Shown here: in pieces, positions 12,647 to 61,350 of the stretch
How the letters are laid out: each line of letters starts with the position of its first letter
How positions within the stretch are numbered: the stretch's first letter is position 1
NCBI GenBank assembly: GCA_020637215.1
Contig: JACJWI010000009.1
Span: forward strand, 20,576-84,575
Reading direction: 5' to 3'
Origin: Microthrixaceae bacterium
GTDB taxonomy: Bacteria > Actinomycetota > Acidimicrobiia > Acidimicrobiales > Microtrichaceae
DNA: 64,000 bases
Made by a program: the position numbers and the translations under genes
The notes under the pieces: generated by a model
What the model was told of the DNA's origin: nothing
Database searches by the model: none
Seen by the model: the letters and a program-made list of their open reading frames with translations, nothing else

Positions 12647-14014
12647 ATGGCGGCCATGAGCTTTGAGGAGTGGCTACCCGCACCTGGCCATGCCCGCGGG
12701 TCGCATCTGATCGACTTCGTCGAGGCGTTGCTCGTCCGCTGTGAGGACCTGGCCGAGGGCCGCGATTGGGCACAGGTCGCGGTCGACGCTCGAGGTGTGC
12801 TGGACGCGATCCGATCGGCGGTCGCCGCCGAAGCACCCGGCATCGCCGTCTTCGACTTCGCCTCGGAGTTCGTCCATGCCCACCTCACCACGGTGGGCGC
12901 CGCGTTCGACGGGGTGGACCCGTTGGTCGCCGCGGTGGCGTGTGCCCGAGCGGTCGATGACATCTGGGGCGACGATCTCGCGTCCGAGTGGGCTGAGCTC
13001 TTGGCCTCGCGCGGCGACAGGATCGAGCCGGGCGACATCGTCTTGTCGGCGGGCAGCGACCACATCACTGACCTGTACTCGCCGGGGCGGGCGTTCTCGG
13101 CGCCTCGGTTCCGTGCCGCTGACGGCGCGGCTCGTACCCGTCGGGCGGGGATCTACCGGCCACAGCAGGGTGTTCCCTCGGTCGTGGTGGATCGTTCGCT
13201 CAGCCGGGTGCTCGCACCGCTGCTGGCCACCGGTGACGGGCGGGCGCGGCCATGGGTCGCTGGAGTGCCGAACACGTCGAGCGCGGAGTGGGACTTCGAC
13301 CGGGCACCGATCCGGCCCCGTGACCGTGTCCGCCACCTCGACGCCGCCGAACGCGTAGTGACCGACGCGTTCGCCCTCGACGCGGCGGTCGTGGTCCTGC
13401 CCGAGTTCAGCGGGTACGTCGATGTGATCGACCGGCTGCGCCAAGCACGCCCGCAGCGACCAACCCTCGTGGTGGCTGGCAGCGGTCACGAGTCGACAGG
13501 CAAGACCCTCCGCAACGTCGCATCGACCTGGATCGCTCGACCCGACGGGACGATCCCGCCCGACCAGCCCATCCGCACCCTCAAGCGTGTCCCCTACGAC
13601 GGGGCGCTGGGAACCGAGCCGCTGACCGAGGTCGCGTCCACGATCACCGTGCAAATCTCGGGGCCGTGGCGCATGGCCATCGGTATCTGCCGAGACCTCT
13701 GCGACCCCGCCATCACCGACGCGTTGGCCCAGCTCGGCGTGAACCTGCTGGTGGTCCCGGCCTGTTCACCCAAGACCACGAACCTGGCCCGCGGCGCCGA
13801 GGCTGTGGCCGTCGACGCCGGAGGGTTCGCGCTCGTCGCGAACGGACCCCCGACCTTCGAGCAACCGAACCGGCCACCAGCGAAGGTCGCCACGGCGATC
13901 TGGTGCACACCACTGGACCGGACCGAACCGCGCCTCATGGCCAGCACCGACACCGCCGGTGTTGTGATCGTCGACCTCAACGGTCACCGGCTCATCCCGA
14001 ACCCCTGGCCCTGA
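12647..14014 (+). CDS. Carbon-nitrogen hydrolase (nitrilase superfamily) domain protein with unknown N-terminal domain
   Basis: VVVLPEFS, LKRVPY and IGICRDL give a plausible E-K-C triad; VNLLVVPACS. Confidence 0.78.
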   Translation: MAAMSFEEWLPAPGHARGSHLIDFVEALLVRCEDLAEGRDWAQVAVDARGVLDAIRSAVAAEAPGIAVFDFASEFVHAHLTTVGAAFDGVDPLVAAVACARAVDDIWGDDLASEWAELLASRGDRIEPGDIVLSAGSDHITDLYSPGRAFSAPRFRAADGAARTRRAGIYRPQQGVPSVVVDRSLSRVLAPLLATGDGRARPWVAGVPNTSSAEWDFDRAPIRPRDRVRHLDAAERVVTDAFALDAAVVVLPEFSGYVDVIDRLRQARPQRPTLVVAGSGHESTGKTLRNVASTWIARPDGTIPPDQPIRTLKRVPYDGALGTEPLTEVASTITVQISGPWRMAIGICRDLCDPAITDALAQLGVNLLVVPACSPKTTNLARGAEAVAVDAGGFALVANGPPTFEQPNRPPAKVATAIWCTPLDRTEPRLMASTDTAGVVIVDLNGHRLIPNPWP

Positions 14015-53702: not shown

Positions 53703-55055
53703 TCAGCTCCCGCTGACGGCGACGTCGTCGATCACCAGCGAGCAGGCCCCGGAACCGCCCGGCGTCCACTCGAAGTCCCCGCCGACCTCGGCGACGTCGA
53801 GCAGCAGCCGCTGGAGGGTCGACGCGATGGTGACCTCGCGCACCGGCGCTCCGAGCTGCCCGCCGTCGATGAGCAGTCCGTCGGCGCCGACCGAGAAGTC
53901 GCCCGAGACCGGGTTCACCCCCGAGTGCAGGCCGGCGAAGGACGTGACGTAGAGCCCCCGGTCGATGCCCGCCACCAGCTCCTCGAAGCTGCGCTCGCCG
54001 GGCGTCATCACCAGCAGTTGCGCCCCGACCCCGGGCAGCGACCGCACGCCGCGGACCGCGGACGCGGTGGATGCCTCCCCGGAGCGACGCCCGGTGTAGC
54101 TGTCGTGGAGGAACCCCTGCAGCACGCCGTCGACGATCAGGTCGTTGCGCCGACAGGCCAGGCCCTCGCCGTCGTACTCGTCGGCCGCGATCGATTCCGA
54201 GCGGGTCGGGTCGTCGACGAAGGTGAGCAGCGGCGACGCGACCGACTCGCCGACCCGGTCCGCGAACGGCGAGCGGCCCCTGGTGACGGCGTCTCCGCTC
54301 AGCATCCCCGCCACCAGCGACACCAGCGTGATGGCGAGCCGGGGCTCGAGCAGGATCGTCCGCCGCGACGACGGCGGCTTGGTCGCGCCGAGCAGTCGCA
54401 CCGCCCGCTGCACCGCGTCGGCCGCGACCTGGTCCAGGTCGAGAGCGAAGGGGTCCCGCGACGCGTCGACGGCCCAGCCCATCTGGGTCTCGCCGTCGGC
54501 GCGGGCCATGGGCGAGGTGGACGCAGAGCACGACCCGCTGCGCTGGAACACCTCGATCCCGTTGCTCGACACGACCGCGGACTCGCCCCAGCCGTCGTGG
54601 TAGGCGGTGGTGCGCGCCGAGGTGACCCGGGGGTCGATCCCGGTCGTCAGGCGCTCCAGCTCCAGGGCGATTCCGACCTTGGCGTCGTTGGCGAGGGCGA
54701 CCACCGCGTCGGACCAGCCGTCCTGGGCCACCGGGGCCACGCCGTCGGGTTCGGCCAGCCCGTTGAACTCGTCGGGCTCCGCGAACCGGCAGTTGTCGCG
54801 GGCCTCGGCCAGGGTTTCGGCCAGCACGTCGGGTTCGAGCGACCCGCAGTGCGCGAACCCCTGACGGCCGTCGCGGATGACCCGGACGCCGGCGCCGTCG
54901 GTGCTCGCGGAGGTGAAGGACTCGACCTCGCCGCCGAACACCTTCACCGACGTCGACGTCGACCGACCGACCGCGACCTCGATCTGCTCGCCGCCCGTCG
55001 CGCTGCCGACCAGCGACCGGGCCAGGGCGACCAGGTCGGCGTCGCCGCCGCTCAC
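53703..55055 (-). CDS. pmbA: PmbA/TldE family protein (copy 1)
   Basis: GVRVIRDGRQG, YDGEGLA, GLHSGVNPVSGDFS; GTGA overlap with the upstream copy. Confidence 0.92.
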   Translation of the reverse strand: MSGGDADLVALARSLVGSATGGEQIEVAVGRSTSTSVKVFGGEVESFTSASTDGAGVRVIRDGRQGFAHCGSLEPDVLAETLAEARDNCRFAEPDEFNGLAEPDGVAPVAQDGWSDAVVALANDAKVGIALELERLTTGIDPRVTSARTTAYHDGWGESAVVSSNGIEVFQRSGSCSASTSPMARADGETQMGWAVDASRDPFALDLDQVAADAVQRAVRLLGATKPPSSRRTILLEPRLAITLVSLVAGMLSGDAVTRGRSPFADRVGESVASPLLTFVDDPTRSESIAADEYDGEGLACRRNDLIVDGVLQGFLHDSYTGRRSGEASTASAVRGVRSLPGVGAQLLVMTPGERSFEELVAGIDRGLYVTSFAGLHSGVNPVSGDFSVGADGLLIDGGQLGAPVREVTIASTLQRLLLDVAEVGGDFEWTPGGSGACSLVIDDVAVSGS

Positions 55056-56404
55056 GTGCCCGACATGGTCACGTCGGACACCGCCAACGAGACCCCGGTC
55101 GCGTCCCACGGGAAGTAGGTCGTGTCGGCGCCGACCGCGACGACGTCGTGCAGCATGCGGGGCAGGGTGGAGCCGATCGTCACCTCGCGCACCGGTTCGG
55201 CCAGCTCGCCGTTGCGGATCCGACGGCCTTCGACGCCGACCGACAGGTCTCCCGACACCGGGTTCACCCCGGAGTGCAGCCCCGACAGCTCCGTCACCAG
55301 CAGCCCGTCGCCGACCCGGGCGAGGACGTCGGCGAGCCCGCCGGAGCCGCCGGTGAGCTTGGCCACGCGGGGACCCACCCCCGGCACGCCCTTGTGGCCG
55401 CCGCGTTGGGCGGATCCGGTGCTGGTGACGCCCGATGCCCGGGCCGTGTAGGCGTTGTGCAGGTAGCCGCCGAGCACGCCGCCCGAGATCAGGGGGACCG
55501 TCCGGGTGGCCAGGCCCTCGCCGTCGGTGTCGTCCGCGGTGGGGGCGAGCGGATCGGTCGGGTCGTCGATGAGGGTGACCAGGGGCGAGGCCACCGACTC
55601 CCCCACCCGGCCGGCGAACGCGGACCGCCCCCGCAGGACCGCCTCGCCCGAGAGCAGCTCGGCGACCAGACCCAGGAACTGCGACGTCACGTACGGGTCG
55701 AACACGACGGTGAGCCGTTCGCTCGGGGCCTTGGCCGCACCCAGCATCGACAGGCAGCGGTTCACGGCGTCCGCGGCGGCGGGCTCGAGCCGGAGGTCCT
55801 CGGTGCTGCGCCCGATCGAGAAGCCGAACCCCGTCGTGGTGCCCGAGTCGTCCTCGGCCAACGCCCATGCGCCGAGGTAGGCCGAGGTGTCGGCTCCGGC
55901 GACCCGGATCCCGGTGGTGGTGGCGATCGCCCCGGCGGCGACGGAGTCCGCGTAGTCCGACGCCTCCAGTCCGACCATGCGGGGATCGGCGTCGAGGATC
56001 GCCCGTTCGAGAGCGACGGCCAGCTCGATCTTGGCGTCGGTGGCCACTTCGGCCAGCCGGGGGTCGAACAGGTCGAGCGTCACCGGGGCGACGCCGTCGG
56101 GACGGGCGAGGCCGGCGTCGGGGTCCGGCGTGCCGAACGCGGCGTTGTCGCGGGCCTCGGCGATGCACTCGTCGAAGGCCTCGCGGTCTCCGAGGTGACC
56201 GACCCACGCCATGCCGGTCCGACCGTCGCGGACGATGCGCACGCCGAGCCCGGCGCTGTCGGACTCGACGAAGTGCTCCACCTCGCCGTCCGCGGCCCGG
56301 ATCTCGGTGTCGTGGCTCCAGGAGACGACGGCTTCGAGCTCCTCGTCGGGCCGCGCCCGGGCCACGACGTCATCGGCGATGGACAGCAGTTCGTCGGGGG
56401 TCAC
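55052..56404 (-). CDS. pmbA: PmbA/TldE family protein (copy 2)
   Basis: GVRIVRDGRTG, DGEGLAT, GLHSGVNPVSGDLS; start GTG ACC CCC GAC GAA CTG. Confidence 0.92.
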   Translation of the reverse strand: MTPDELLSIADDVVARARPDEELEAVVSWSHDTEIRAADGEVEHFVESDSAGLGVRIVRDGRTGMAWVGHLGDREAFDECIAEARDNAAFGTPDPDAGLARPDGVAPVTLDLFDPRLAEVATDAKIELAVALERAILDADPRMVGLEASDYADSVAAGAIATTTGIRVAGADTSAYLGAWALAEDDSGTTTGFGFSIGRSTEDLRLEPAAADAVNRCLSMLGAAKAPSERLTVVFDPYVTSQFLGLVAELLSGEAVLRGRSAFAGRVGESVASPLVTLIDDPTDPLAPTADDTDGEGLATRTVPLISGGVLGGYLHNAYTARASGVTSTGSAQRGGHKGVPGVGPRVAKLTGGSGGLADVLARVGDGLLVTELSGLHSGVNPVSGDLSVGVEGRRIRNGELAEPVREVTIGSTLPRMLHDVVAVGADTTYFPWDATGVSLAVSDVTMSGT

Positions 56405-56490
56405 GCGGGGCGGGGGTCGTTCAGGCGAGGAGAGGGCAGCACGCTCGGCATCGGCCCAGACTGCCACGGGGCCACCGACCCCGCCGCCCC

Positions 56491-56610
56491 CGCCGAACTT
56501 GTAGCCCACACGCCACCACAGCGACCGCCACCTACAACAACGCCGGGGCCCGCCGAACTTGTAGCCCACGCGCCGCCACAGCGACCGCCGGCTACAACAT
56601 CGCCGAGCCC
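56491..56610 (+). repeat. Repeat family B: two tandem 60-bp units (left of the Cu cassette)
   Basis: cgccgaacttgtagcccacacgccaccacagcgaccgccacctacaacaacgcc..., period exactly 60; internal ttgtagcc/ggctacaa inverted repeat. Confidence 0.9.
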
Positions 56611-56692
56611 GCGGGCCCGAACCCCACGCGCATGACCCAAGTCACCACGGCCCAGCACGGAACTGGTGATGCATCTGTGGTTTGATATCTCC

Positions 56693-57352
56693 ATGTCCGA
56701 TAACTTCCGTCAACGGCGACGGGTGCGGACCGGTCGCATCGTCGCCCTGCTCGTGGCTCTCACGCTGGTAGGTGCCGCCTGCGGCAGCGACACCACCGAC
56801 GACGACGCCTCGGGTTCCGGCGACCTGCTGGGCGCCGTCCGAAACCCGCCGCTCGCGGTCGGCGACGTCACCCTGACCGACACCTCCGGAGCGACGCCCC
56901 GGTCGGTCACCATGACCCCGCCCAAGGGCGAGCTGTACGTCGTGTACTTCGGCTACGCGTCCTGCCCCGACATCTGCCCGACGACGCTGAGCGACATCCA
57001 GGTCGCTCTCGGCGACCTGGATGAGGCCGACGCGAAGCGGGTGACGGTCGGCATGGTGACCGTCGACCCCGAGCGCGACACACCCGAGCTGCTGAGCGAG
57101 TACCTCAGCCACTTCTTCGACCGCTCGATGGCCCTGCGGGCCGAGACGCCCGAGGCCCTGACCGCTGCCACCGAAGCCTTCGGGGTCCGCTACGAGATCG
57201 CCCCGCACCCCCCGGGTGCCACCGACTACGAGGTGTCGCACACCGCGGTGACCTACGTCATCGACGACACCGGCAAGGTCGCCGTCGAGTGGCCGTTCGG
57301 CTTCGACAGCGAGCACATGACCAAGGACCTCAACACACTCCTGGAGGGTTGA
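56693..57352 (+). CDS. SCO1/SenC copper chaperone lipoprotein
   Basis: Lipobox GAAC, FGYASCPDICP, VTVDPERDT, VSHT. Confidence 0.93.
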   Translation: MSDNFRQRRRVRTGRIVALLVALTLVGAACGSDTTDDDASGSGDLLGAVRNPPLAVGDVTLTDTSGATPRSVTMTPPKGELYVVYFGYASCPDICPTTLSDIQVALGDLDEADAKRVTVGMVTVDPERDTPELLSEYLSHFFDRSMALRAETPEALTAATEAFGVRYEIAPHPPGATDYEVSHTAVTYVIDDTGKVAVEWPFGFDSEHMTKDLNTLLEG

Positions 57353-57353
57353 C

Positions 57354-57977
57354 ATGCACACCGACCGAATCCGCCGCTCCCTGGCGGCACCGATGGCCCT
57401 CGCCCTGACCGCCGGGGTGTTCCTCGTCGGCTGTGGCGACGACGGCAAGGAGTCATCGTCATCGACGACCCGACCCGAGGCGTCCACCAGCCAGCCCGCC
57501 GACGACGCCGCGATCAGCACCTCGGGGGTCTGGGCCCGCACCTCACCCGCGGTGGCCAGCGCCGGAGCCGTCTACCTGAAGATCACCAACGACTCCGACT
57601 CCGACGACGCCCTGGTCGCCGCCGCGGTCGACCCGTCGGTGGCCAAGAAGACCGAGCTGCACGAGACCAAGGCGGCCGACGGCGGAATGTCGAGCACCAC
57701 CGCGCCCGAAGAGGGGATGGGGCAGGGACAGTCGGGCGACGCCCACGGTTCCTCGACCACCGCGATGGGCGGCGGCGGGATGATGACGATGGCCGAGGTG
57801 GAGAAGATCCCGGTCGCCGCCGGCACGACCGTCGCCCTCGAGCCCGGCGGCTACCACATCATGTTGATGGAGCTGGCCAAGCCGCTGGTCGTCGGTGAGA
57901 AGGTGAAGGTGACGCTGACCTTCGAGAAGGCCGGCGACGTCGTCGTCGAGGCGGAAGTCCGTGACAACGCCCCTTGA
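57354..57977 (+). CDS. PCu(A)C copper chaperone lipoprotein
   Basis: Lipobox LVGC, GAVYLKITN, ELHET, LEPGGYHIMLM. Confidence 0.92.
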   Translation: MHTDRIRRSLAAPMALALTAGVFLVGCGDDGKESSSSTTRPEASTSQPADDAAISTSGVWARTSPAVASAGAVYLKITNDSDSDDALVAAAVDPSVAKKTELHETKAADGGMSSTTAPEEGMGQGQSGDAHGSSTTAMGGGGMMTMAEVEKIPVAAGTTVALEPGGYHIMLMELAKPLVVGEKVKVTLTFEKAGDVVVEAEVRDNAP

Positions 57978-58455
57978 CCCGACCTCGGATCCGACGGCTG
58001 ATCCGACTGCTGGAGACACCGCTGATCCGACCTCGTCGGGGCTCCCGGACACAGGTCCGGGGGCCCCGGCCGGGGCCGAGCCGCGCCGACGCCATCGTGG
58101 GTTGGTGATCGCCGCGACCATCTCGGTGCTCGCCCTGTTGACCGCCGGGGTCGCCTGGCTGGTCGTGAGCCGCGACAGCGGACCCGAGCCGCGGACGGTC
58201 CACCTGGTCGTCGAGGCCGGGACCCAGGACCGGGTGAACGCCGGCGAGAAGGTCGTCATGATGCCCAGCTACATGGAGCTGCGCGTCGGCGACACCCTCT
58301 TCATCGAGAACAAGGATGCGGTGCCGCAGTGGGTGGGTCCCTACCTGGTGGGCCCGGGCAACTCGTTCTCGTTCACCTACGGGTCCCCCGGGCGCTTCGC
58401 CGGCTTCTGCCCTCTCGCCGACGGGCAGACCTACGAGATCGTGGTCAAGGAATGA
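57961..58455 (+). CDS. Membrane-anchored cupredoxin-like protein
   Basis: TM helix, LRVGDTLFIENKD, FSFTYGSPGRFAGFCP. Confidence 0.6.
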   Translation: MTTPLDPTSDPTADPTAGDTADPTSSGLPDTGPGAPAGAEPRRRHRGLVIAATISVLALLTAGVAWLVVSRDSGPEPRTVHLVVEAGTQDRVNAGEKVVMMPSYMELRVGDTLFIENKDAVPQWVGPYLVGPGNSFSFTYGSPGRFAGFCPLADGQTYEIVVKE

Positions 58456-58973
58456 CCGCCGCACGAGCCCACCGAGCCACCGCCACCGTCAGTCTGCTCA
58501 TCGCAGCCATCGCCATCTCGGTGTTCGGCACAGCCTGCGGGGGTGGCGGTTCCGACGACGCCTACGTCGCCGAGGACCTGCGCTCCGGCCGGGACGTGTC
58601 GGTCGAGGACCTCCGGGGTGAGCCGGTGGTCCTGGTCAGCTGGGCGACCTGGTGCAAGGAGTGCGACGAGGTGCTCCGCGGCCTCCAGGAGTTCTCGTCG
58701 TCGGAGGACGCCAAGGGCCTCGAGGTGGTGGCGGTCAACCTCGACGCCGCGTCGGTCGACGACGAGATCGACGCCAAGATCGAGCGCCACGGGCTGAGCA
58801 CCCGGCTGTGGCGGGACCGCCGCAACGAGTTCAAGCGCTCGTTCAAAGCGCTCGGCGTCCCCACGACGGTGCTGCTCGATCGTGACGGAGAGGTGGCGGC
58901 GACCTTCCCGGGAGCGGTCGACTTCGACAGCGCCGAGGTCCGCTCCGCGCTCGAGGAGATCCGGTCGTCGTGA
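58452..58973 (+). CDS. TlpA/ResA-like thiol-disulfide oxidoreductase lipoprotein
   Basis: Lipobox GTAC, WATWCKEC, VVAVNLD, GVPTTVLLDRDG. Confidence 0.9.
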   Translation: MTAARAHRATATVSLLIAAIAISVFGTACGGGGSDDAYVAEDLRSGRDVSVEDLRGEPVVLVSWATWCKECDEVLRGLQEFSSSEDAKGLEVVAVNLDAASVDDEIDAKIERHGLSTRLWRDRRNEFKRSFKALGVPTTVLLDRDGEVAATFPGAVDFDSAEVRSALEEIRSS

Positions 58974-59770
58974 CCGGGGTCCTCTCCGTTGTCGTCGCCT
59001 CCCAGGACCTGGTCCGGGACGGAACGCTGCTGATCGCGCTGCCGATCGCCGTCCTGGCCGGCGTCGTGTCGTTCCTGTCGCCCTGCGTCCTGCCGTTGGT
59101 CCCCGCCTACCTGTCCTACGTGACCGGCGTGTCGGTGGCGGAGCTGAGCGAGGGTGGATCCTCGACCGACGTGCACACCATGCGGCGGGTCGTCATCGGA
59201 ACGCTCGGGTTCGTGGCCGGCACCGCCGTCGTGTTCGTCTCGTTCGGGGCCGCGTTCGGGAGCTTCGGCGACGCCCTGCAACGCCACGCCGTCGGGCTGA
59301 CCCAGATCCTCGGCGTCGTCACCATCTTCCTGGGGCTGCTCCTCGCCGGCGCGTTCAGCCGCAGCGACCTGCTGAACCGGGACCTGCGCATCCACCGGAT
59401 CCCGGGTCAGGGGCTGCTGGCTGCGCCGATCATCGGGCTCACCTTCGCCCTCGGCTGGACGCCGTGCATCGGACCGACCCTGGGCGTGGTGCTCGGGTTG
59501 TCGGCCTCGAGCGACCAGGCCTCGGCGTGGCGCGGCGCCGTCCTGTCGCTCGCCTACTGCCTGGGCCTGGGGATCCCGCTGCTGATCTCCGGTCTGGCGT
59601 TCAACCGGGCGATGACGGTGTTCGGCGTGATCAAGAACCACTACCGGGCGCTCATGGTCGGCAGCGGCGCGATGCTCGTCGTGCTCGGCGTGCTGCAGGT
59701 CACCGGCGTGTGGACCGAGTGGATGAATCGCCTGCAGACGTCGTTCGGCGGAAACTCCCTCCCGCTCTGA
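58970..59770 (+). CDS. ccdA: Cytochrome c biogenesis protein CcdA
   Basis: AGVVSFLSPCVLPLVPAYLSY, FALGWTPCIGP, AYCLGLGIP. Confidence 0.93.
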   Translation: MTGVLSVVVASQDLVRDGTLLIALPIAVLAGVVSFLSPCVLPLVPAYLSYVTGVSVAELSEGGSSTDVHTMRRVVIGTLGFVAGTAVVFVSFGAAFGSFGDALQRHAVGLTQILGVVTIFLGLLLAGAFSRSDLLNRDLRIHRIPGQGLLAAPIIGLTFALGWTPCIGPTLGVVLGLSASSDQASAWRGAVLSLAYCLGLGIPLLISGLAFNRAMTVFGVIKNHYRALMVGSGAMLVVLGVLQVTGVWTEWMNRLQTSFGGNSLPL

Positions 59771-59772
59771 GC

Positions 59773-59892
59773 GCCCCGGCGCCGCCGAACTCGTAGCCCA
59801 CACGCAACCCCAGCGACCGCTGGCTACAACAACGCCCGGCGCCGCCGAACTCGTAGCCCACACGCCACCCCAGCGACCGCTGGCTACAACAA
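59773..59892 (+). repeat. Repeat family B: two tandem 60-bp units (right of the Cu cassette)
   Basis: cgccgaactcgtagcccacacgcaaccccagcgaccgctggctacaacaacgccc..., same orientation as 56491-56610. Confidence 0.92.
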
Positions 59893-59919
59893 CGGCAGGG
59901 TGACGGCCGATGGCTCGGG

Positions 59920-61350
59920 TCAGGCGGCGGTTCCGCCGATCGTCAGCCCGTGGGCCCGCAGCGTGGGGACCCCGTCTCCGACGGGGACCCCCTGGCCGTC
60001 CTTGCCGCAGGTCCCCGGCGCGCCCATGGCGAAGTCGTCGCCGACCGCGTCGATGGCGGCCAGCACCGCCGGGCCGTTGCCGATCAGGTTGCCCTCGCGC
60101 AGCGGCTCGGTGATGCGACCGTCCTCGATCAGGTACGCCTCGGTCATGCCGAAGACGAAGTCGCCGGTCGCGGTGTTGACCTGACCGCCGCCGAGGTGCG
60201 CCACGTACACCCCCGACGGCGTGTCGGCGACGATGTCGTCGGGCGAGGACGTCCCGCCCAGCAGATACGTGTTGGTCATCCGCACCATCGGCAGGTGCTG
60301 GTAGCTCTGCCGCCGGCCGTTGCCGCTCGAGGACCGCCCCTCCTTGCGGGCCCGCAGCCCGTCCCACATGTAGTCGACGAGCAGGCCGTCCTGGATCAGC
60401 ACGTTGCGCTGCGCCGGCCGACCCTCGTCGTCGACGGCGAAGCACCCCCACTCGCCGCCCATCGTCCCGTCGTCGACCAGGGTGACCAGCGGCGACGCGA
60501 CCTGCTCGCCGAGCCGGCCGGCGAACACCGACGCACCCTTGCCGACCAGGTCGGCCTCGAGTCCGTGACCGCACGCCTCGTGGAACATCACGCCGCCACC
60601 GCCCGGGCCGATGACGACGGTCATCTCGCCCGATGGCGCCGGGCGCGCCGCCAGCTTGGTGAGCGCCCGCCGGGCCGCCCGCTCGGCCAGGTCCGCCACC
60701 TCGACGCCGTCGAACAGCTCGAAGCCGACCGTGTGGCCGACCGACTCGCGACCGGTCTGCATGCCGGTGTCGCCGCTGGCGACGCAGCTCACCGAGAAGA
60801 TCGTCCGGACCTGGTCGTCGGAGGCGAGCACGCCGTCGCTGTTGGCGACCAGGATCCGCCGGCGGCCATCCGCGTAGCGCGCCGACACCTGAGTGATCGC
60901 CCCGCCGGCGGCCCGGGCGGCCCCGTCCGCGGTCAGCAGCAGCTCCACCTTGCGGGCCTTGGGCACGTCGCCGGGGAGGATCGCCACAGCGTTGGGCGGC
61001 GGCGCGTCGACCCTGTCGAGGTCGACCACCCGGGTCGACCCGCCGGCTCCCCGCGACGCCGCGGCGGCGGCCTCGGCCGCGGCGATCAACCCGGCCTCCG
61101 ACAGGTCCGAGGTGTGGGCGAAACCGGTCGAGTCCCCGACCACGACCCGGATGCCGGCCCCGCGGTCGCGGCCCGATGTCAGCTCCTCGACCCGGCCGTC
61201 GTCGAGCAGGGCCGACGACGACCGACGGTCCTCGACGAACACCTCGGCGAAGTCCGCCCCCCGGGCGAGGCCCGCCCCGAGCACCCGTTCGACGACGGCC
61301 TGATCGAGCAGGGCCGGCTCGGAGCTGCGGTCGGTGGGGGCATCGGGCAC
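59920..61350 (-). CDS. tldD: TldD metalloprotease
   Basis: FHEACGHGLEAD, SGNGRRQSY...RMTNTY, GGQVNTATGDF, CGKDGQGVPVG; AAGGAG RBS before GTG. Confidence 0.95.
   Translation of the reverse strand: MPDAPTDRSSEPALLDQAVVERVLGAGLARGADFAEVFVEDRRSSSALLDDGRVEELTSGRDRGAGIRVVVGDSTGFAHTSDLSEAGLIAAAEAAAAASRGAGGSTRVVDLDRVDAPPPNAVAILPGDVPKARKVELLLTADGAARAAGGAITQVSARYADGRRRILVANSDGVLASDDQVRTIFSVSCVASGDTGMQTGRESVGHTVGFELFDGVEVADLAERAARRALTKLAARPAPSGEMTVVIGPGGGGVMFHEACGHGLEADLVGKGASVFAGRLGEQVASPLVTLVDDGTMGGEWGCFAVDDEGRPAQRNVLIQDGLLVDYMWDGLRARKEGRSSSGNGRRQSYQHLPMVRMTNTYLLGGTSSPDDIVADTPSGVYVAHLGGGQVNTATGDFVFGMTEAYLIEDGRITEPLREGNLIGNGPAVLAAIDAVGDDFAMGAPGTCGKDGQGVPVGDGVPTLRAHGLTIGGTAA

Follow-up and report, generated by a model that had tools for sequence, protein, structure and literature searches.

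The locus lies in a 64,000-nucleotide stretch of DNA (the window) from an uncultured Acidimicrobiales bacterium whose genome is 92% complete, and consists of five plus-strand genes set between the minus-strand genes tldD and pmbA. Gene calls and Pfam agree on this five-gene set, which an earlier note had read from the letters of the window, and the interval between tldD and pmbA1 holds only the five copper/redox genes, with no transposase or integrase, again as that note had it. The pmbA gene that it placed at the cassette border is present, but there are in fact two tandem PmbA/TldE paralogues, pmbA1 and pmbA2 (44% identical), of which pmbA2 is kept downstream of pmbA1 in relatives. The features, in window coordinates, are as follows.

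53703..55055, minus strand: pmbA2, second PmbA/TldE-family paralogue (PF19289, PF01523, PF19290)
55052..56404, minus strand: pmbA1 (tldE), PmbA_TldD domains 1-3, GTG start at 56404-56402; orthologues directly after or overlapping tldD in many relatives
56401..56451, minus strand: mini-ORF of 16 codons (MPSVLPSPRLNDPRPA), its TGA overlapping the pmbA1 GTG (GTGA), by sequence reading
56458..56463, minus strand: -10-like hexamer CAGTCT in a conserved block, 6 nt upstream of the mini-ORF ATG, a putative leaderless promoter
about 56483..56610, plus strand: left REP60 array, two units, by repeat comparison
56666..57352, plus strand: Sco1/SenC copper chaperone/thiol-disulfide protein, likely ATG at 56693 (PF02630, 3.8e-32)
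57354..57977, plus strand: PCu(A)C periplasmic Cu(I) chaperone (PF04314, 6.6e-34)
57961..58455, plus strand: predicted membrane-anchored cupredoxin-like protein, 164 aa (445 homologues, alignment, AF2, Foldseek)
58452..58973, plus strand: TlpA/ResA-like thioredoxin with WCKEC (AhpC-TSA, Redoxin and Thioredoxin_8 matches)
58970..59770, plus strand: CcdA (DsbD_TM) membrane electron conduit (PF02683)
about 59775..59902, plus strand: right REP60 array, two units, by repeat comparison
59920..61350, minus strand: tldD metalloprotease with HEACGH (PmbA_TldD domains 1-3)

The copper operon

The operon translations carry the signature motifs CPDIC, YHIM, WCKEC, SPCV and TPCIGP, and the CxxxC of Sco (CPDIC, with a downstream His read from the translation), the HxM of PCuAC, the CxxC of TlpA and the two membrane cysteines of CcdA are all present. 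The genes overlap tightly, so they are probably read as one transcript. Sco, PCuAC, TlpA and CcdA form a pathway for assembly of the CuA center, known from Bradyrhizobium, Thermus and the Streptomyces sco operon; all four families and their motifs are common to the present operon, which differs in packing the whole redox-plus-copper chain into one portable five-gene unit, and in encoding an additional protein, cupredoxin-like and membrane-anchored, from an undescribed family. The known family roles predict a functionally self-sufficient operon acting in CuA maturation: CcdA would carry reducing power through the membrane for the TlpA-like thioredoxin, which in turn would keep the Sco cysteines, and those of the target CuA site, in the reduced state, while copper would be delivered by PCuAC and Sco, perhaps also by the cupredoxin-like protein. 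No CuA target gene (oxidase subunit II or similar) adjoins the operon.

The 164-residue protein has no Pfam match, and its family of 445 homologues is without a Pfam model. An AF2 model from 102 sequences (pLDDT 82.7, and >90 over residues 79-163) places a transmembrane helix at residues 44-70 and a beta-sandwich at 79-163, and Foldseek matches it to amicyanin, plastocyanin, Cupredoxin_1, FtrB and CuA domains (E about 1e-4, target TM-score 0.46-0.54, probability 1.00); by modelled fold, the protein is predicted to be cupredoxin-like, a Greek-key beta-sandwich. In the alignment of the same 102 sequences only N117, D119, and C150 are invariant, and the type-1 copper ligand set (His, Cys, His, Met) is absent.

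By sequence comparison, the five genes are an acquired accessory set, and the earlier suggestion that the cassette was gained agrees with this: the remaining species of the genus yielded no orthologue of the operon, and Sco-PCuAC and TlpA-CcdA each occur as a further pair elsewhere in the genome. The nearest homologues of CcdA outside the species are at most 76% identical. GC and GC3 of the operon are ordinary for the genome, and so give no compositional hint of a foreign source. The operon is portable. Four other sequences (L051, L052, L053, and L237) carry all five genes in an unchanged order. The operon is also present in an Aquihabitans MAG, where hisS and relA flank it, and in a JGI contig, where its neighbors are an aldehyde dehydrogenase gene and a CBS-domain gene; near these copies in other Acidimicrobiales contexts there is no tldD/pmbA, no REP60 and no flanking tandem array.

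The tldD-pmbA1 junction

The claim that tldD and pmbA are normally contiguous holds in most relatives: tldD and pmbA1 abut or overlap (ATGA) in nine of them (G003, G009, G022, G023, G020, G012, G011, G033, and G027), and tldD orthologues in relatives are 77-93% identical. In others (G002/G016, G005, G008, G014, G015, and G019) unrelated cargo of 1.7-3.4 kb lies between the two genes, and in G004, G006, and G017, where the two are on separate contigs, other cargo lies beside tldD or pmbA1. Neither REP60 nor copper genes were found in the relatives' cargo at tldD/pmbA1, and because this cargo is unrelated and repeat-free, the junction is a long-standing gene-turnover hotspot in this family of Acidimicrobiales. 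In the present species cluster (strains ≥93% identical) the hotspot holds the copper operon; no strain with an empty site was found among seven population contigs, and an exact-flank scan of metagenome contigs for such a site gave no match.

The insertion would have cut pmbA1 off from its translational coupling to tldD. The leaderless mini-ORF that the earlier note had proposed ahead of pmbA is borne out comparatively, in that the same architecture (a -10-like box, followed after 6-8 nt by a start codon, and a stop overlapping the pmbA1 start) recurs in G002, G004, G005, G006, G008, and G014, relatives with different cargo, and in strain L151, with unconserved peptides of 5-16 aa, and the block CGYGTGGCAGNCTG is conserved in all split genomes. 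A sigma-70 consensus scan, which is ill-suited to this GC content, found no promoter. We infer that pmbA1 may be expressed from the conserved leaderless promoter, the first product being the short mini-ORF with no conserved peptide, and that the overlap of its stop with the pmbA1 start would hand ribosomes on. By eye, the promoter block somewhat resembles the 3' end of tldD (GGCTGACC), for which duplication is a candidate reading.

Mycobacteria have documented cases of leaderless short ORFs coupled to the gene that follows (Shell et al. 2015, as cited in PMC12548453). Those ORFs share with ours the -10 box, the spacing of 6-8 nt to the start codon, the unconserved peptide and the 4-nt overlap between stop and next start. 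The present arrangement differs in that, as read from sequence, it appears to replace an ancestral tldD-pmbA1 stop/start overlap, and in being conserved across genera at a hotspot border.

The REP60 repeat family

The repeats flanking the operon belong to a family, REP60, with about 120 units in this genome, in 52 arrays of 1-6 units, all of 60-bp period, direct tandems throughout and intergenic in 51/52 cases; a pattern search gave 110 matches against 0 for a reversed-pattern control. Arrays occupy 22 convergent, 26 co-directional and 4 divergent gaps (all 2838 intergenic regions divide into 465, 1907, and 466, respectively), the 42% in convergent gaps lying within 0-25 nt of stop codons, and their orientation relative to co-directional genes is 17:8. 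REP60 is biased to gene 3' ends. The palindrome arms are CCGAACTTGTAGC / GCTACAAGTTCGG, with 13-bp arms in about half of the units and an almost invariant 5' arm, and full members have a folding energy of -23.9 kcal/mol (z -7.7). Strains differ in unit number here and at many other loci (2, 3 or 6 units in the array at C16:113334; 2, 3 or 4 at C12:453811), and all arrays are found at the same sites throughout contigs 93-99% identical. Among 41 genomes REP60 occurs only in the genome under study (G000), G001, and G007, which is patchy within the genus. REP60 is a lineage-restricted repeat family, tandem and interspersed, whose units form hairpins and which behaves like a VNTR. It also breaks short-read assemblies: arrays bridge, in population contigs, at least one contig junction of G000 (from the end of C5 to the start of C18), and in two related drafts genes that flank arrays in G000 sit on separate contigs.

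No Y1/RAYT transposase (PF01797) was found in G000, G001, or G007, while control genomes matched; the best match to integron integrase (TIGR02249) reached 76 bits against a cut-off of 265, the hits being generic tyrosine recombinases only, and Rfam gave no match in the region at E up to 1. Single exact 15-mer matches in REP60-less genomes, considered as a possible master copy, proved to lie at the 3' terminus of a gene for an OmpR-family regulator (encoding VGYKF). Copies of IS110 and IS3 are inserted 55 and about 105 nt from one array, not inside it, and so are not REP-targeting.

MIRU are mycobacterial minisatellites of the VNTR type (Supply et al. 1997, summarised in PMC12548453), and their likeness to REP60 is one of organization: both are actinobacterial, with units of 40-100 bp (60 in REP60) in direct tandem arrays of 1-6 units at dozens of dispersed intergenic loci, with strain-variable unit number and no known dedicated mobilizing enzyme. 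According to the same summary, MIRU insert at start codons inside operons, with an ORF coupled at -4 nt and oriented with the operon, which REP60 does not; REP60 favors the 3' ends of genes and convergent gaps, is strongly palindromic and comes from an uncultured Acidimicrobiales lineage. With the REP/BIME and REPIN-RAYT systems of proteobacteria (PMC3116915), REP60 shares extragenic hairpin repeats clustered after genes, short imperfect palindromes, many copies and lineage-specific families, but it has no RAYT gene and is strictly direct tandem with a fixed 60-bp period, not inverted doublets or alternating mosaics. Integron cassettes (attC/IntI) differ in that REP60 is without an integron integrase and its arrays are dispersed genome-wide, and a transposon or integrative element in that there is no transposase or integrase, the repeats on the two sides are in direct orientation and neither array duplicates the other.

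The arrays around the operon and at other rearrangements

Two 60-bp units in the same orientation stand on each side of the operon (left about 56483-56610, right about 59775-59902), as the earlier note had described. The right doublet follows the ccdA stop nearly immediately, at 4 nt in our register and not 2 nt, and the GTAGCC...GGCTAC stem exists, but the units here are degenerate and fold no better than shuffles (as DNA, -9.0 and -5.2 kcal/mol, z about -0.9). One weak terminator-like site lies between repeat units. The left array has one unit in strain L151 and two in L152, and the right has three in L157. Identity is 98% between the right units, 85% between the left units and 83-87% across sides; the best match of a left to a right unit is 51/60, whereas arrays on other contigs match at up to 57/60, and the longest exact stretch shared by the two arrays is 17 nt, which makes a poor RecA substrate. 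Neither flanking array is a sister copy of the other.

These observations leave unsupported the proposal that the repeat-bounded cassette was gained or is excised through its doublets: cargo occupies the junction in at least nine relatives without repeats, the operon occurs elsewhere without repeats, the arrays are non-sister and no empty site was seen. The note had itself named abundance of the 60-mer as grounds for abandoning the proposal, and the genome-wide count is 52 arrays. A homologous variant would have an array already standing between tldD and pmbA1, with which circular or linear DNA carrying operon plus array recombined, leaving direct arrays and allowing loop-out. The direct orientation of the flanking arrays and the presence of one in a rare divergent gap would follow, and exactly this topology exists as a presence/absence polymorphism at the C18 locus, where L164, L172, and L227 have a 1.5-kb insert between direct array copies plus about 200 nt, and G000 has a single array. 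The duplicated C18 flanks are, however, near-identical, including the about 200 nt of unique DNA, unlike those of the operon; G001 and G007, the other REP60-bearing species, have no array beside tldD or pmbA1. Together with the short exact match, the failure of left and right to be closest relatives, the seven occupied population contigs and the movement of the operon without REP60 elsewhere, this makes array-mediated capture or excision improbable.

Double flanking alone is unremarkable in this genome, as array pairs ≤5 genes apart number 7 against 3.9 expected by permutation (P about 0.08). Given 52 arrays among 2838 intergenic regions, chance plus the preference for 3' ends might suffice, and the right array does lie in a convergent gap, the favored class. 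The left array, one of only four in divergent gaps, is in a depleted class, both gaps are products of one rearrangement, and the tadA locus offers parallels, all of which speak against pure coincidence; we think it unlikely.

At tadA, arrays in inverted orientation lie exactly at both breakpoints of an inversion, and are only 43/60 identical with a longest match of 14 nt, too little for RecA. The left tadA array is also in the divergent class (with the left operon array, 2/4 of the divergent arrays), and both junctions of two independent rearrangements, the operon insertion and the tadA inversion, carry arrays. Single genes with arrays on both sides number 4 against 0.74 expected (P about 0.006). 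Breaks or indels were found at 6/13 arrays and 2/7 controls, which is not significant, in a comparison (chimeric-protein queries against G002, G003, and G008) where the genomes are very divergent and two controls were counted without a returned result. The array facts fit involvement in rearrangement or preferential landing at fresh junctions, and since arrays coincide with the tadA inversion and the 1.5-kb indel, the family may have a role in recombination.

One form of such a role would make REP60 hairpins the sites of a putative trans-acting nuclease or recombinase, with flanking homology irrelevant, yielding insertions, inversions and changes in unit number. The tadA breakpoints at arrays too dissimilar for RecA, the patchy occurrence within the genus and the excess of array-flanked single genes would suit it; the lack of PF01797 in the three REP60 genomes and of an integron integrase above cut-off, the IS copies beside and not in an array, the positional stability of arrays among 93-99% identical strains, the degenerate hairpins at the operon and the non-significant break comparison do not, and we consider structure-specific recombination here quite unlikely. 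Equally doubtful as capture is the wider claim that REP60 arrays are portable sites of this kind for a putative enzyme, at which array-bounded segments (the copper operon, the inverted tadA-tRNA-Ser segment, an ABC-transporter pair, and single accessory genes) are inserted, inverted or excised without long homology.

The abundance of REP60, the repeat-free copies of hotspot and operon, the unremarkable pairing and the non-sister arrays lead us to read the flanking arrays as independent colonizers. The best explanation, which we hold with somewhat better than even confidence, is that two things are superimposed, a hotspot with an accessory operon and independently settled REP60 arrays; the flanking repeats are probably not the vehicle of the operon. 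REP60 would fill intergenic space, preferably at gene 3' ends, and the arrays would have settled separately in the two intergenic gaps made by the insertion. REP/BIME in other bacteria are sites of rearrangement and stabilizers of RNA 3' ends (e.g., PMC3116915); the flanking arrays here may function as bidirectional hairpins, either for RNA 3' ends or as insulators.

REP60 is a previously unreported MIRU/REP-like family from a lineage abundant in wastewater and the environment, and could serve as a strain-typing (VNTR) marker. Were the arrays active recombination sites, they would constitute a RAYT-less, integrase-less cassette system in Acidimicrobiales and a new way to shuffle small cassettes. 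The cupredoxin-like family may be a new component of copper handling. The locus is a clean example of a complete copper-center maturation operon, as predicted from its families, moving among Acidimicrobiales and landing inside a translationally coupled gene pair, and shows how the downstream gene may stay expressed after the insertion, through a predicted leaderless coupling mini-ORF.

The copper operon between tldD and pmbA1

The interval from 56.4 to 59.9 kb holds five closely packed genes, read on the plus strand and enclosed by the minus-strand tldD and PmbA/TldE genes:

53703-55055, minus: pmbA2, PmbA/TldE paralogue in tandem with that at 55052-56404
55052-56404, minus: pmbA1, PmbA/TldE paralogue nearest tldD, one flank of the operon
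Operon gene 1, plus: Sco1/SenC, motif CPDIC in the translation
Operon gene 2, plus: PCu(A)C, motif YHIM in the translation
Operon gene 3, plus: 164-aa protein, no Pfam match
Operon gene 4, plus: TlpA/ResA-like thioredoxin, motif WCKEC in the translation
Operon gene 5, plus: CcdA, motifs SPCV and TPCIGP in the translation
59920-61350, minus: tldD, the other flank

The gene list of the earlier note (SCO, PCu(A)C, a cupredoxin-like gene, TlpA and CcdA between tldD and pmbA) proves right, because five genes are present, their motifs and domains are the expected ones, and the 164-aa protein is modelled with a cupredoxin-like fold. The family of this protein comprises at least 445 members. Its AlphaFold model (alignment of 102 family members) is confident, with a pLDDT of 82.7, and consists of one TM helix and a beta-sandwich, for which the Foldseek matches are cupredoxins: amicyanin, plastocyanin, Cupredoxin_1, FtrB and CuA domains. 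Type-1 copper ligands were not found among the 102 aligned sequences, in which only N117, D119 and C150 are invariant. As modelled, the protein represents a new family, predicted to be cupredoxin-like.

An insertion at a cargo hotspot

Among related genomes (G-numbers), the end of tldD and the beginning of pmbA1 overlap (ATGA or TTGA) in G003, of the same genus, and in G009, G022 and G023, and the two genes abut in G020, G012, G011, G033 and G027, which bears out the view that they are normally adjacent. No orthologue of the operon CcdA was found in the closest genomes of the genus (best match 45%), and G000, the assembly holding the window, also carries a Sco-PCuAC pair and a TlpA-CcdA pair, separate and distant from the operon. 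The operon, of a composition ordinary for G000, is an insertion between tldD and pmbA1. These five genes, in unchanged order, occur in three other Acidimicrobiales MAGs; the set is also found on a Logan contig with a lipoprotein gene after ccdA, on a JGI contig between an aldehyde dehydrogenase gene and a CBS-domain gene, and in an Aquihabitans MAG (L241, 4761-7798) between hisS and relA on the strand opposite to both, where it has once more been inserted between two housekeeping genes that run in one direction. Tandem arrays were not found flanking the operon in these other MAGs and contigs; the five-gene operon is portable without REP60, the 60-bp hairpin-forming tandem repeat family that borders it here.

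The junction is a cargo hotspot with or without REP60. It holds a DUF2461-like and a thioesterase-like gene in G002 and G016, VapBC and other genes in G005 and G006 (tldD and pmbA1 being on separate contigs in G006), a glyoxalase-type gene in G008, a CotH-like gene in G014, a luciferase-like monooxygenase and an esterase in G015, and an SDR with other genes in G019. Cargo pieces are common to different genomes in a mosaic pattern, and REP60 arrays were not found at the cargo-bearing junctions of these genomes. Directly after tldD in G015, of another genus, a single REP60-like hairpin (AGAACTTGTTCCCCACGCG…GGGACAAGTTCT; L043, contig C144, ~13445-13500) lies at the same border, the only one of its kind in the genome. 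Two relatives (L133, G004:C656, 1-76; L132, G007:C258, 2570-2765) have another hairpin motif, TTCCGGGCCAAATGCCCCGGAA, richer in AT, at contig ends adjoining tldD or pmbA1; it may be a further repeat family.

The split-locus genomes have, upstream of pmbA1, a block CGYGTGGCAGNCTG with a -10-like (C/A)AGNCT box, an ATG or GTG start 6-8 nt past it, and then a short ORF, 5-16 codons long and not conserved in sequence, that ends in a GTGA or ATGA overlap with the start of pmbA1. The whole arrangement was seen in G000, G002, G004, G005, G006, G008, G014 and the close strain L151; in G015, G017, G001 and G007 the box is followed by the pmbA1 start codon itself, and in G016 the short ORF stops 13 nt short of pmbA1. 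The leaderless mini-ORF suspected before pmbA thus has an architecture that recurs in relatives with other cargo, with the -10-like box as its putative promoter. It matches the leaderless coupling short ORFs that are described in PMC12548453 as delivering ribosomes to the downstream gene, and such coupling would replace the ancestral tldD-pmbA1 overlap. The arrangement probably predates the copper operon and is part of the hotspot border, not of the cassette.

The REP60 repeat family

In the 3.39-Mb assembly, ~120 REP60 units were found by profile search; they form 52 arrays, each of 1-6 units, with an exact 60-bp period throughout. Full units have arms CCGAACTTGTAGC / GCTACAAGTTCGG and an inner stem, and fold very strongly (z -7.7). 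The arrays typically fill the intergenic gap to 0-25 nt from the stop codons. Convergent gaps hold 22 of them, co-directional gaps 26 and divergent gaps 4, in an assembly with 465, 1907 and 466 gaps of these classes in all; convergent gaps are over-represented among the array sites and divergent gaps under-represented.

Only G000, G001 and G007 among 41 related genomes carry REP60, and in these three no RAYT gene was found; neither an integron integrase nor an Rfam match for the region was found. Lone 15-mer matches in other genomes were rejected as REP60, since they belong to the end of an OmpR-type regulator gene that codes for VGYKF. Translated from its minus strand, REP60 itself gives VGYKFGG, and 19 nt in a row agree exactly with the 3' end of an OmpR-family response-regulator gene (…SVGYKFGESRWGG; C12:145811-145843 in G000 and orthologues L228-L236), a match that may be accidental or may point to where the repeat came from.

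Arrays occupy the G000 sites in seventy metagenome contigs, of which most are 93-100% identical to G000 and a few either diverge further or have no match; unit numbers often vary among strains (2, 3 or 6 at C16:113334). Since the arrays are shared in position and variable in unit number, REP60 behaves as a MIRU-type VNTR with REP-like hairpins, and is a new MIRU/REP-like repeat family. A G000 contig break (C5 end, C13, C18 start; loci L168, L169, L179) falls at an array, through which population contigs link C5 to C18; L168, ~100% identical to G000, has IS110-family and IS3-family elements 55 and ~105 nt either side of it.

Arrays at the operon and at other rearrangements

Two 60-bp units stand on each side of the operon, all four in one orientation, as the earlier note had described. 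Identity is 98% between the right-hand units R1 and R2, 85% between the left-hand L1 and L2, and 83-87% between left and right. The GTAGCC/GGCTAC stem is present, but the four units are a degenerate subtype with the 3' arm CAACAACGCC, and their hairpins fold no better than shuffled sequence. On contigs 93-98% identical to the window, the operon likewise separates pmbA1 from tldD and has an array at either end (L153, L175, L178 and L210, as well as L151 with one left and two right units, L152 with two left units and L157 with three right units). Among these seven contigs we found neither an empty site, nor the cassette at this position without repeats, nor the contiguous tldD-pmbA with one doublet that had been predicted.

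The doublets had been read as the means by which the cassette was gained or could be excised. Against this, array pairs no more than five genes apart were observed 7 times in G000 where 3.9 are expected (P about 0.08); the arrays to the left and right are not sisters, their best identity being 51/60 as compared with 57/60 to arrays on other contigs; and the longest identical run that the two share measures 17 nt. Elsewhere in the genome, arrays do accompany rearrangement. The tRNA-Ser(CGA)-tadA segment at C12:341.3-342.4 kb (341341-342362) is inverted relative to six relatives (including G002, G003, G005 and G008), the inversion is fixed in the population (contigs L173, L211), and both breakpoints are exactly filled by REP60 arrays in inverted orientation; at only 43/60 identity, these two arrays in their present form are unlikely to have recombined simply through RecA. 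At C18:4411-4586 the array is single in G000 and other strains, but some strains (L164, L172, L227) have 1.5 kb of inserted DNA there, which codes for an HTH-nucleotidyltransferase (MNT-like) protein and is bounded by direct duplicates of ~200 nt of gene 3' end plus array. Single genes enclosed by two arrays are more frequent than expected (4 observed, 0.74 expected, P about 0.006), and 2 of the 4 divergent-gap arrays sit at the junctions of this operon and of the tadA inversion. In a comparison with highly divergent genomes, 6/13 arrays and 2/7 controls lie at synteny breaks or indels, a difference that is not significant. We read the arrays as preferentially settling, or persisting, in gaps that are newly formed and unconstrained; a structure-specific recombination mechanism appears improbable to us. 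What had been observed at the locus is confirmed, and its interpretation partly supported.

An SDR gene with arrays on both sides (C18:33141-33923) encodes 96 C-terminal residues 98% identical to those of G002 (C1:1592634-1592921; usually 75-85%), which suggests recent exchange. L158 and L166 join the end of C3, via ~1.4 kb of unassembled sequence, to C14:75354, leftward, so C14 of G000 may be rearranged or mis-joined at 75354/75355.

In sum, a conserved hotspot here holds an accessory operon with a predicted role in CuA maturation, and REP60 members border it; three side results are modestly novel: REP60 with its inversion association, the conserved and putatively coupling mini-ORF, and the predicted cupredoxin-like family.
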